DNA of 55,663 nt, taken from a virus. Taxonomy: Duplodnaviria; Heunggongvirae; Uroviricota; Caudoviricetes. The stretch covers positions 1-55,663 of the IMG/VR virus record IMGVR_UViG_2713896798_000010; one strand, given 5' to 3'. Position numbers: made by a program. Positions 39,001 to 42,000 of this stretch are shown here, one piece after another; within the stretch, counting starts at the first letter, position 1; each line of letters starts with the position of its first letter.

Positions 39001-42000
39001 GACAGAAATCTGAGTGGCCATAACGATAACTCCGTACATTTGGACATTATCGCCACCGTCAGGTGCTAATCATCATGGTGGCGAACTGTGCGGGGTTAGC
39101 ACTACCGGGTACGGAAACCGGCGAGCCTTTCGGCTCCCCCACACAGCCCGCCATAAATCGCGAATGTGACTGTGCAAACGATATGAAAAAAGACGCGGGC
39201 GCGTCTCATATCGCTCCGTAAACATCCGGGGTGCTAATCCCGACGCCAGATTTTGCTGGCGCGTGAGGAATATAGCCCCGAATAAATCATCGCGTCAATC
39301 ACCTTGTTTTCCTCGCACGATGTCTTAGCCACCGGATATCCCACAGATGAGCCGTGCAGTTGAAGGTTTTTACGTCAGATTCTTTTGGGATTGGCTTGCG
39401 TTTATTTCTGGAGCGTTTCGTTGGAAGGTATTTGCAGTTTTCGCAGATGATGTCGGTGATGCTTCGTCGCTGTCGCCTCATGCCGCCCTCCTGACGCCCT
39501 GCCCGATCGCCATCAATGCCGCTTTGGATACGGTAGTAAACATCCGTCGAGGACTGATGAACGGTCGCCAAATCAGCAGCATGGAGCCTTTGCTGTTTCC
39601 CTTCTTCTCCAGCCCTGTCGATGGTTCGATAAAATTAATCCGTCCATCAGTGATAATGCGAACTTCGTCAACACTCTCCAGAGCCTTGCTGAACCATCCG
39701 ACTGACATATCCTCTGGCACAAGCATCACTACCGTCTGTCGCTGTTGTATGCACTGCTCAGCGGCTTTTTCCACCCACGGCCTGATATTGCTGTACGGTG
39801 GGTTATTCCAGATTGCACCGTGGCTTATCCACTCAGAATTTAGCGCGTCGTCGGCCTCAGTTAACCAGTGAGCGCACAGAGCATTTTTGTCGCTCGCTGC
39901 CGAATCCAGCCAGAATCCAAACTCAATATCCAGTGCATCAAAAAGCCAAAGCGGCGTTTGCCAGCAGTCCTTGTCGTGTGATGGCGTATTTGATTTGATA
40001 GTCATGCAGCCCGATCTCCCCATCGCGCTTTCATTTTTTCATTTGCAAATCGCCAGAATCTTCCTTTGTGATATGAGCTTTCGCCATTACAGCAACGACT
40101 AATTGACGAACTATCAAATCCTTCTCTGACAGCATCCATAGCTGCTTCATAATAAACCTCCTCCCCAGTTTTCATGTCAGTAGAAATAACAGCTTTACTG
40201 GCAGGATGGTCACCACTAAATTTACCTAGCGATATAGGTATTCTTCCATTTTGTTTATATCCGTGTTTTGAGTTTTCAGAATGTGATACCCATTCAAGGT
40301 TATCAGCCCTATTGTCATCTCTTCGCCCATTTTTGTGATTAACTACCAAGCCATCACAGAACCCTGTACAGAATGCTTTCGCAACTATCCTGTGGGCGCT
40401 GTATTTCTTACCGTATACCTTTATTTGAAGATATCCTGTCGACTTGCACTTGAATGGTTTTACACTAGGGAAGGTGCGAATAAGCAGGTCATTTCTTCCC
40501 AAGCTGACTCGCTGATTAAAATTTCTCGGATCTGGGCCGATTTTTTTCCCGCAAACACATCGAATCAGCCTATTTAGGCTATTTTTTCCACCATTTCTGG
40601 CGTTATTTCCGGTTTTTACTGAGATCTCTCCCACTGACGTATCATTTGGTCCACCCGAAACAGGTTGGCCAGGGTGAATAACATCGCCAGTTGGTTATCG
40701 TTTTTCAGCAGCCCCTTGTATCTGGCTTTCACGAAGCCGAACTGCCGCTTGATGATGCGAAACGGGTGCTCCACCCTGGCACGGATGCTGGCTTTCATGT
40801 ATTCGATGTTGATGGCCGTTTTGTTCTTGCGCGGATGCTGCTTCAAGGTTTTTACCTTGCCGGGACGCTCGGCGATCAGCCAGTCCACATCCACCTCGGC
40901 CAGCTCCTCGCGCTGTGGCGCTCCTTGGTAGCCGGCATCGGCTGAGACAAATTGCTCCTCTCCATGAAGCAGATTACCCAGCTGATTGAGGTCATGCTCG
41001 TTGGCCGCGGTGGTGACTAGGCTGTGGGTCAGGCCACTCTTGGCATCGACACCAATGTGGGCCTTCATGCCAAAGTGCCACTGATTGCCTTTCTTGGTCT
41101 GATGCATCTCCGGATCGCGTTGCTGCTCTTTGTTCTTGGTAGAGCTGGGTGCCTCAATGATGGTGGCATCCACCAAAGTGCCTTGGGTCATCATGACGCC
41201 TGCTTCGGCCAGCCAGCGATTGATGGTCTTGAACAATTGACGGGCCAGTTGATGCTGCTCGAGCAGGTGGCGGAAATTCATGATGGTGGTGCGATCCGGC
41301 AGGGCGCTATCCAGGGATAATCGGGCAAACAGGCGCATGGAGGCGATTTCGTACAGGGCATCTTCCATGGCACCGTCGCTCAGGTTGTACCAATGCTGCA
41401 TGCAGTGAATACGCAGCATGGTCTCCAGCGGATAGGGCCGTCGGCCATTGCCCGCCTTGGGATAAAACGGCTCGATGACTTCCACCATGTTTTGCCATGG
41501 CAGAATCTGCTCCATGCGGGAGAGGAAAATCTCTTTTCGGGTCTGACGGCGCTTAGTGCTGAATTCACTATCGGCGAAGGTGAGTTGATGGCTCATGATG
41601 TCCCTCTGGGATGCGCTCCGGATGAATATGATGATCTCATATCAGGAACTTGTTCGCACCTTCCCTAGTGCCATTAATTATTTTCTTATATGGCCTCTGT
41701 CTGGTTGATGTTACTGTAACTTCCCTCGTAATAGACCTGAAATTTCCTTTATTGCTAACCTGATAAAATGGAATCCCTTCGATATCTACCCAAACCTCAA
41801 TCATAATTCCTCCATTCGCTAAGATGAATTGAGTTCATGGCACAATATGCTTCTATGTAGTCCATTATTTCGGATATTTTTTTTACAGATAGAGTCGCCG
41901 TACTCTCTCTGATGTTTATTAGCTCACCTTCTAACCCTGATATAATCTCAGGGTGCTGGTTGGTTGCAATCTGCCAACCAGAAACGAATAACCCCTTCCA

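Follow-up and report, generated by a model that had tools for sequence, protein, structure and literature searches.

ISKpn26 splits a NUMOD4-HNH endonuclease gene, itself a putative mobile addition to the nin region, in a lambdoid prophage

ISKpn26 has been described as an insertion sequence of the IS5 family, 1,196 bp long and with a CTAG direct repeat (PMC8023600). Among endonucleases, I-HmuI of Bacillus phage SPO1 (structure 1U3E) is an HNH nicking homing enzyme encoded by a group I intron. Two papers (PMC2790892, PMC2988022) describe the phage T4 homing endonucleases MobE, SegF and SegG as free-standing and spreading by intronless homing, their genes wedged between or into conserved genes, with presence/absence polymorphism and co-inherited, diverged flanks. 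In lambdoid phages, an 'HNH endonuclease' (WP_000573864.1; PHROG 59) is annotated after ninB in the Stx phages P27, 86, Lahn2 and TL-2011a; its putative function is assigned by annotation, and our literature searches found no functional study of the nin-region endonuclease.

Here, we report a counterpart of this gene that is interrupted by an insertion sequence. In the window, by which we mean the whole stretch of 55,663 nucleotides that was analysed, the endonuclease gene has ninB on one side and dam on the other (Table 1). All three belong to the early-right (nin) operon of an stx-negative lambdoid prophage of E. coli with type III effector genes; neither stx nor tRNA genes were found in the window. 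Our joint reading, to which we assign a probability of about 0.9, is that ISKpn26 knocked out an I-HmuI-like NUMOD4-HNH gene that was itself a mobile addition to the nin region. A copy of ISKpn26 transposed into a CTAG at codons 46-47 of the endonuclease gene, duplicating these four bases and severing the N-terminal NUMOD4 module. The signal of the insertion lies far beyond chance, and the observation is confirmed. Both ISKpn26 and the endonuclease gene are already known, and the insertion of an IS into an accessory prophage gene is an ordinary, well-understood event.

Table 1. Features of the interrupted ninB-dam interval, in positions of the window
Feature	Position	Strand	Basis or remark
ISKpn26 (IS5 family, IS5 group) insertion sequence, 1196 bp	40469..41664	-	Full-length identity to annotated copies; length and CTAG duplication
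IS transposase, 326 aa	40616..41596	-	Pfam DDE_Tnp_1 PF01609, 1.7e-35; DUF772 PF05598, 3.2e-21
Terminal inverted repeat, end distal to transposase start, GGAAGGTGCGAATAAG	40469..40484	+	15/16 match to the other repeat
Terminal inverted repeat, end proximal to transposase start, GGAAGGTGCGAACAAG	41649..41664	-	
Target-site duplication copy 1, CTAG	40465..40468	.	Intact alleles have a single CTAG here
Target-site duplication copy 2, CTAG	41665..41668	.	Both flanks share positions 5890-5893 of the SCPM-O-B-9504 sister sequence (BLAST)
5' endonuclease fragment, codons 1-46	41665..41804	-	Native reading, then 9 foreign IS codons (REGANKFLI) and stop; ORF 41637..41804
3' endonuclease fragment, codons 47-200	40002..40468	-	HNH_3 at residues 69-112 (roughly 40269..40400); predicted C-terminal I-HmuI-like DNA-binding region
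Last 10 endonuclease codons including stop (KARWGDRAA, stop), ninB-derived	40002..40031	-	No base differs from the final 30 nt of phage 434 ninB
ninB (Orf recombination mediator), diverged 138-aa allele	41797..42213	-	Pfam NinB, 4.4e-40; ends just past a conserved Glu-Trp (EW)
Phage Dam-type N6-adenine methyltransferase	39478..40005	-	Pfam Dam, 8.1e-65; 528 bp in P27 and RefSeq annotation

Across its full length, the element is 100% identical in nucleotide sequence to copies from plasmids of E. coli and Shigella that are annotated as 'IS5-like element ISKpn26 family'. Size, DDE_Tnp_1 transposase, 16-bp terminal repeats and the 4-bp duplication of CTAG, a YTAR target, are likewise those of ISKpn26; the element itself shows no difference, and only its insertion site is new. 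The transposase is oriented in the same direction as the nin operon. We dropped canonical IS5 as the identity of the element. The transposase of K-12 IS5A (insH1) is closely related to that of the window element, and the two agree in family, in organisation and in the 12 inner bp of their inverted repeats, but IS5A is 1195 bp long and, in a DNA alignment, reaches only ~95% column identity, with clearly divergent ends and sub-terminal regions. For these reasons, 'IS5' is correct here as the name of a family and not of the exact element, which is the ISKpn26 isoform, a relative of canonical IS5. An earlier sequence-only reading had named the insertion IS5, a label that holds at the family level; it had also placed the boundaries of the element correctly and noted a CTAG on either side, both copies of which are present. 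It had further called the 16-bp terminal repeats perfect, whereas they agree at 15 of 16 positions and are imperfect. A search of the window for their pattern gave these two hits and no others, where 0.03 would be expected by chance. ISKpn26 is multicopy in related strains and occupies 25 places in E. coli SCPM-O-B-9504.

The latter strain also harbors a near-identical prophage in which the endonuclease gene is intact, annotated as WP_000573864.1, and contains one CTAG; the duplication and the recency of the insertion are therefore seen directly. BLAST alignment of the window to this sister prophage gave 5836 identical bases out of 5836 on one side of the IS (47500..41665) and 1972 out of 1973 on the other (40468..38496), with one CTAG common to both flanks. 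A 61-nt junction with the single CTAG is matched exactly in phage P27 and again in the SCPM-O-B-9504 prophage. With an IS that is 100% identical to other copies and flanks essentially identical to those of an intact sister, the insertion is shown to be recent. The disrupted allele was found neither in 50,697 phage records nor in 5426 complete E. coli genomes; shared by none of the latter (0/5426), it may serve as a strain-specific allele marker. By itself it carries little weight: ISKpn26 is multicopy in this lineage, and one more accessory gene of a prophage has been disrupted by an IS.

The gene was reconstructed in silico by deleting the IS and one CTAG and joining 41804..41669 to 40468..40002 on the minus strand. 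The two fragments meet in frame, as the sequence-only reading had proposed, and regain a 603-bp gene with an ORF of 200 aa, in which the target CTAG occupies nucleotides 137-140. The ATG start and ribosome-binding site put forward in that reading also stand, with GGAGGA preceding the ATG (41804) by 4 nt, as do its overlaps with both neighbors: that between the start and the ninB stop measures 8 nt (ATGATTGA), and the stop and the dam ATG (40005) overlap in an ATGA. RefSeq and phage P27 annotations place the ends of the gene identically. The reconstructed protein is 100% identical to the products of intact annotated genes in 62 phage records, WP_000573864.1 among them, and of the 5426 complete E. 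coli genomes, 77 carry the identical intact gene (80 copies, all uninterrupted). The window gene differs from these in being split by the IS. Its 5' piece would encode 46 native residues followed by 9 from the IS, and its 3' piece has neither a start codon nor a ribosome-binding site of its own, from which we infer that the insertion inactivated the endonuclease. The locus would thus represent a naturally occurring knockout of an HNH endonuclease that is widespread and belongs to the nin region of Stx-type phages, with a near-isogenic intact allele for comparison. A scan for polarity recovered intrinsic terminators on the operon strand, across the IS and its flanks, at chance level.

In the reconstructed protein, the NUMOD4 (PF07463; 1.4e-13, residues 3-63) and HNH_3 (PF13392; 2.4e-11) profiles both score above their Pfam cut-offs, and a match to phrog_59 HNH endonuclease was also obtained. 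The homology expected of the 200-aa ORF is thus present. Because the NUMOD4 match covers residues 3-63, the IS cuts within this domain, at codon 46/47. A phmmer alignment to I-HmuI (1U3E; E 3.7e-14) covers residues 55-186, so that both the HNH motif and the predicted C-terminal DNA-binding region are aligned. His90, Asn102 and Asn111 align with I-HmuI His75, Asn87 and Asn96, Asn111 corresponding to the metal-binding Asn, whereas I-HmuI Asp74 is replaced by Asn89; the catalytic His90, assigned by this alignment, is encoded at 40335..40337 in the 3' fragment. The I-HmuI NUMOD-like profile PF22083 scores below threshold (19.2 bits; cut-off 27), and the 1U3E alignment reaches residue 186, equivalent to I-HmuI 170 of 174. 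The two proteins are distantly related, sharing roughly 30% of aligned residues as judged by eye, and I-HmuI is intron-encoded, whereas the window gene is free-standing. Comparison with the homologue in SEN22 gave pN 0.13 against pS 0.81, which indicates purifying selection on the endonuclease gene.

We compared nin regions with and without the endonuclease. It occupies the same site in the 62 phage records and 77 genomes mentioned above, and is missing from most lambdoid phages and from 98.6% of the complete E. coli genomes. In the HNH-less phages 434, SfI, HK140 and phi315, ninB overlaps dam directly; their dam genes are 97-98% identical to that of the window, but they carry a lambda-type ninB allele, and the window NinB shares 46% identity with that of 434. 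BLAST homology with these phages extends from dam to position 40032 of the window, and the phi315 ninB end differs by one base from the last 30 nt of the endonuclease gene. At this fixed site, the gene is accordingly present in some genomes and absent from others that are otherwise homologous. The endonuclease gene is linked 1:1 to the diverged ninB allele: 27 of 28 IMG/VR loci with the variant ninB clade have the same intact HNH gene, and the remaining one has, at the same spot, an unrelated HNH_3+AP2 gene, also with a ninB-like tail. The boundaries of the cassette lie at conserved patches, namely KPIVVTIQERNRS on the left, within highly conserved ninB codons 28-42, and the conserved ninB tail on the right. 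SEN22, in a P22-type background, has a different right-hand joint, which makes two such joints inside the last 30 nt of ninB between lambda-type and P22-type backgrounds. The gene that follows the endonuclease is not constant and may be dam, ninD, ninE or a further nin gene, and several nin regions hold additional, different HNH genes.

These comparisons point to the endonuclease gene being a mobile addition inside the old 3' end of ninB. The sequence-only reading had likewise proposed that an endonuclease invaded the nin region, and the presence/absence pattern, the site within the ninB 3' end and the second HNH type there speak for this part; the gene is, however, no simple insert between ninB and dam, as it lies within the former ninB 3' end and is linked to a diverged ninB. 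The endonuclease reading would run through the last 10 codons of ninB, stop included, in their original frame, whereby the ATGA coupling to the downstream gene would be kept. Most likely, its spread, whether past or ongoing, relies on the cutting of ninB alleles that lack the endonuclease, after which the gene is copied in along with the linked, diverged ninB segment, an intronless homing of the kind known for the free-standing T4 endonucleases. Comparative patterns support this reading. The present locus differs from MobE, SegF and SegG in that it is temperate and lambdoid, in the chimeric C-terminus of its endonuclease, apparently borrowed from the interrupted gene, and in that homing is read here from sequence comparison.

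Two other histories of the endonuclease gene deserve to be weighed against homing. The ninB variant and the HNH gene may form an interchangeable lambdoid module, exchanged by homologous recombination at conserved flanks, with the endonuclease playing no role in its own spread. Mosaic boundaries at conserved patches are the norm in lambdoid phages, and both joints of the cassette fall in such patches, a pattern equally typical of module shuffling and a point against homing. We nevertheless consider this account possible rather than probable, as lambda-type and P22-type backgrounds have different right-hand joints, both of them in the final 30 nt of ninB, and a second HNH family occupies the same site, which is more than passive shuffling predicts. 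Alternatively, the protein could be a domesticated accessory nuclease that acts in recombination or replication of the phage together with the NinB/Orf variant inherited alongside it, in which case the IS would have removed a useful but dispensable function. The linkage to one ninB allele, the 8-nt translational overlap and the strong purifying selection all fit a nuclease cooperating with NinB and also count against homing, and Orf-family proteins with fused HNH domains (DUF968) are known from Gram-positive phages (PMC4118853). Such a role is unlikely, given how many lambdoid phages and E. coli genomes lack the gene, the unrelated HNH-AP2 gene at the same site, an architecture matching I-HmuI, a homing enzyme encoded by an intron, and the further, different HNH genes in several nin regions.

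The insertion itself also admits other explanations. The IS could be an assembly artefact, a repeat collapsed or misplaced into this locus, in keeping with the many copies of ISKpn26 in related strains; yet the exact IS ends adjoin cleanly duplicated CTAG copies of 4 bp, and the isogenic empty allele has this site once, which argues for true transposition and makes misassembly exceedingly improbable. That the insertion gave rise to a new expressed product is also very unlikely. A GTG inside the IS (40634) does open an in-frame ORF (40002..40634, minus strand) that runs into codons 47-200 and would yield 210 aa with the HNH and the predicted C-terminal DNA-binding region intact. This ORF was rejected as purely mechanical: its GTG has no Shine-Dalgarno sequence at a usable distance, it overlaps the 3' end of the transposase gene, and its product would be missing the first 46 residues, which belong to the NUMOD4 module.

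Returning to the preferred reading of an ISKpn26 insertion into a mobile endonuclease gene, a bolder version of its homing component can be put forward tentatively, although we think it less than probable. In lambdoid and Stx phages, the ninB-variant and HNH cassette could be a unit that actively undergoes intronless homing. It would target the 3' end of lambda- or P22-type ninB, borrow its last codons and stop so that translation stays coupled to the next nin gene, and drive localized marker exclusion when lambdoid phages reside together or infect the same cell, the unrelated HNH-AP2 gene being a competitor for the site. If so, the IS-disrupted allele and the intact SCPM-O-B-9504 allele would make a natural near-isogenic test pair. 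Two kinds of HNH gene in the ninB 3' end, each reusing its last codons, could offer a simple system for studying homing endonucleases in the competition and mosaicism of lambdoid and Stx prophages. A scan of one genome per species did not find the variant ninB allele and returned only lambda-type ninB; many of the latter matches sat on low-coverage or roughly 48.5-kb contigs of unrelated taxa and probably represent contamination by phage lambda.

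The sequence-only reading had placed an IS with flanking CTAG duplications in the nin region, and both its ends and the CTAG on either side were borne out by sequence reading and by script. Its terminal repeats, GGAAGGTGCGAATAAG and GGAAGGTGCGAACAAG, are identical at 15 of 16 positions rather than perfect as first described, and the repeat pattern occurs at only two sites in the 55.7-kb window, both of them ends of the element (0.03 expected). The element shows 100% identity over 1196 bp to E. coli and Shigella plasmid copies labeled by NCBI as "IS5-like element ISKpn26 family", a label also carried by E. 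coli chromosomal matches. In contrast, alignment with the canonical IS5A of K-12 (1195 bp) gives ~95% column identity, with clearly unlike sub-terminal regions. ISKpn26 has been described as a 1,196-bp IS5-family element whose 4-bp target, CTAG, is duplicated on insertion (PMC8023600), and the window copy agrees exactly in length, family and duplication. The element is ISKpn26, and the earlier name IS5 is correct at the family level only. It is co-oriented with the pR operon, between P and Q, and a simple terminator scan of the element and its flanks returned nothing beyond chance level.

Features of the window and of one comparison locus
Feature	Position	Strand	Size	Remarks
IS element	40469..41664		1196 bp	read of 39700..42300 and script check
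CTAG flanks	40465-40468 and 41665-41668			directly outside both IS ends
IS transposase	40616..41596	-	326 aa	domains DDE_Tnp_1 and DUF772
IS-endonuclease ORF	40002-40634	-	210 aa	GTG start at 40634, within IS
Ant N-terminal fusion ORF	38458..39039	-	193 aa	left by 1540-bp absence
EspF-repeat protein, TccP2 type	1475-2368	+		five repeats; effector cargo, prophage end
OspI-like glutamine deamidase homologue	2441-3079	-		effector cargo, prophage end
NleB-family type III effector gene, split	3144-3875 and 3927-4124	-
Prophage integrase	54377-55663
HNH_3 + AP2 protein, unrelated	L059:2880-3461		193 aa	same spot after ninB

In silico removal of the element and one CTAG restored, as predicted, an unbroken 200-aa ORF on the minus strand that starts with the ATG at 41804 and terminates with the TGA at 40002-40004. 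The NUMOD4-HNH assignment also stood: the reconstructed protein matches NUMOD4 (1.4e-13, residues 3-63) and HNH_3 (2.4e-11, residues 69-112) above the Pfam cut-offs, PHROG 59 "HNH endonuclease" (1e-39) and, below threshold, an I-HmuI NUMOD-like profile at residues 145-181. Residues 55-186 align with the solved homing endonuclease I-HmuI (1U3E; E 3.7e-14); with numbering counted off this alignment, His90, Asn102 and Asn111 lie opposite I-HmuI His75, Asn87 and Asn96, whereas I-HmuI Asp74 is replaced by Asn89. The insertion falls at codons 46/47, within the NUMOD4 module, leaving a 5' piece whose 46 native residues are now followed by REGANKFLI and a stop, and a 3' piece without its own start. 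Judged from the sequence, endonuclease activity can safely be presumed lost through the insertion. A 210-aa ORF that overlaps the transposase stop, leaves the IS end in frame and continues into endonuclease codons 47-200 was rejected as a gene; it is a mechanical ORF, with no usable Shine-Dalgarno sequence or ribosome-binding site evident.

Homology searches with the reconstructed protein found 62 phage records with a 100% identical intact gene, among them Stx2 phage 86, P27, Lahn2, TL-2011a and many Stx2a phages; P27 holds the exact 61-nt junction with a single CTAG. The gene is present in 77 of 5426 complete E. coli genomes, with all 80 copies full length and none interrupted, and the IS-bearing allele was found neither among these genomes nor among the phage records. 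The decisive comparison is the sister prophage of E. coli SCPM-O-B-9504 (NZ_CP144930.1), which is identical to window 47500..41665 at 5836/5836 bases and to 40468..38496 at 1972/1973, both alignments sharing one CTAG, four bases of the intact gene WP_000573864.1. Because these flanks are near-identical and the CTAG is single there, the duplication is real and the insertion recent. ISKpn26 matches 25 places in SCPM-O-B-9504, and therefore the element is active in the lineage.

The window is a lambdoid prophage with cI, O, P, ren, ninB, the interrupted HNH gene, dam, ninE, ant, a NinI-like phosphatase gene and Q, with type III effector cargo and the integrase at its ends and neither stx nor tRNA genes within it. 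The gene overlaps reported earlier hold: the endonuclease ATG, with GGAGGA 4 nt upstream, overlaps the ninB end by 8 nt (AAT TAT GAT TGA), and at the other end its TGA and the dam ATG at 40005 overlap as ATGA, boundaries annotated identically in P27 and RefSeq. A simple position between ninB and dam did not hold. Comparison of nin regions yielded, besides the 62 records with the endonuclease, many lambdoid phages without it (434, SfI, Sf101, HK140, mEp043 and phi315), where ninB directly overlaps dam; their homology to the window runs through dam to 40032, 27 nt past the dam ATG. The endonuclease ORF ends in 30 nt (AAA GCG CGA TGG GGA GAT CGG GCT GCA TGA, encoding KARWGDRAA*) that match the final 30 nt of 434 ninB at every base and differ by one base from the phi315 ninB tail. 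Upstream of the endonuclease lies another ninB allele, with lambda-type similarity over codons 1-44 and 46% identity overall; its product terminates as ...SEWRNYD*, just past the conserved Glu-Trp (EW) motif, and lambda-type NinB runs on as EWKARWGDRAA*. The ninB-identical tail and the allele ending after EW therefore place the endonuclease gene within the former ninB 3' end, where the ten last ninB codons, counting the stop, are still read in the ninB frame, so that the same TGA is coupled to the gene that follows.

In the phage collection, the endonuclease is as frequent as this ninB allele (62 records at 99% or more and one at 95-99% for each), and an intact endonuclease occupies the same position in 27 of 28 IMG/VR loci with this ninB clade. 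The 28th (L059, contig 3300031084_000259) has a more distant clade member and, after it, an HNH_3 + AP2 gene with no tblastn match to the window endonuclease at 1e-3, whose product ends in ...IEWASRFGDKQRAAA*, a ninB-like tail (EWASRFGDKQRAAA); being unrelated, it brings to two the endonuclease families at this site. Downstream of the endonuclease, the E. coli genomes and phage APC_JM3.2 carry dam, ninD, ninE or a different nin gene. The P22-like Salmonella phage SEN22 has a ninB of this allele (86% identical) followed by an endonuclease at 78% identity; there, only GCCGCATGA is left of the P22-type ninB tail, and ninD is the next gene. Between the Stx-type and SEN22 endonucleases, pN is 0.13 against a pS of 0.81 (synonymous sites saturated), so purifying selection has maintained the protein.

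Homing, as the sequence-only reading had proposed, would best fit these comparative patterns: the presence/absence polymorphism and a constant location within a conserved gene argue for it, as do the two different right-hand joints and the two endonuclease families at one site. This reading also agrees with the known behavior of free-standing T4 endonucleases such as MobE (PMC2790892; review PMC2988022). Ordinary module exchange at conserved patches may instead account for the locus, or the nuclease may cooperate with the linked NinB; Orf-HNH fusions are known from Gram-positive phages (PMC4118853). A literature search for the nin-region endonuclease found no paper. The original observation is confirmed, and its interpretation supported with minor corrections (ISKpn26, 15/16 repeats, ninB embedding). 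ISKpn26 and the endonuclease gene are already annotated publicly and the event type is routine; the small added value lies in how the endonuclease gene is inserted and in a natural near-isogenic knockout/intact pair.

Five IMG/VR loci (L045, L046, L052, L054 and L058) carry extra, weaker HNH-like matches (27-42% identity) 0.5-2 kb from the ninB-HNH pair, and some nin regions therefore hold two different HNH genes. Separately, lambda-type ninB sequences uniformly 45% identical to the query (L010-L025) lie on contigs of ~1 kb or ~48.5 kb, some of them named as low-coverage (cov about 1), in assemblies of unrelated taxa that include Psychrobacter, Shewanella, Neobacillus, Nocardioides and Bradyrhizobium; they look like phage lambda DNA contamination.

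Beyond the nin insertion, the window lacks 1540 bp of the SCPM-O-B-9504 prophage (L006 7863..9402), spanning the ant 3' end, a KilAC antirepressor (roi-like) gene and nearly the whole of ninG. At the junction (38496-38499) the alignments on either side have a 4-nt overlap, and past it identity falls from 99.95% to 98.1%, so the difference may reflect replacement of a module by recombination and not a plain deletion. Across NZ_CP144930.1 1727117-1785966 and window 1732-55663, the sister prophage alone carries IS1B, close to genes on the integrase side, as well as ISEc23 (IS66 family) and an IS3-family element amid effector/tail-fibre genes, and the window alone has ISKpn26 in the endonuclease gene; in this lineage, closely related prophages are therefore distinguished chiefly by IS insertions that occurred independently. 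Within the effector cargo, the NleB-family gene is broken into two ORFs, one of 65 aa (N-terminal) and one of 243 aa that matches profile positions 75-317; the annotation of a related strain lists it as a pseudogene interrupted by an internal stop.
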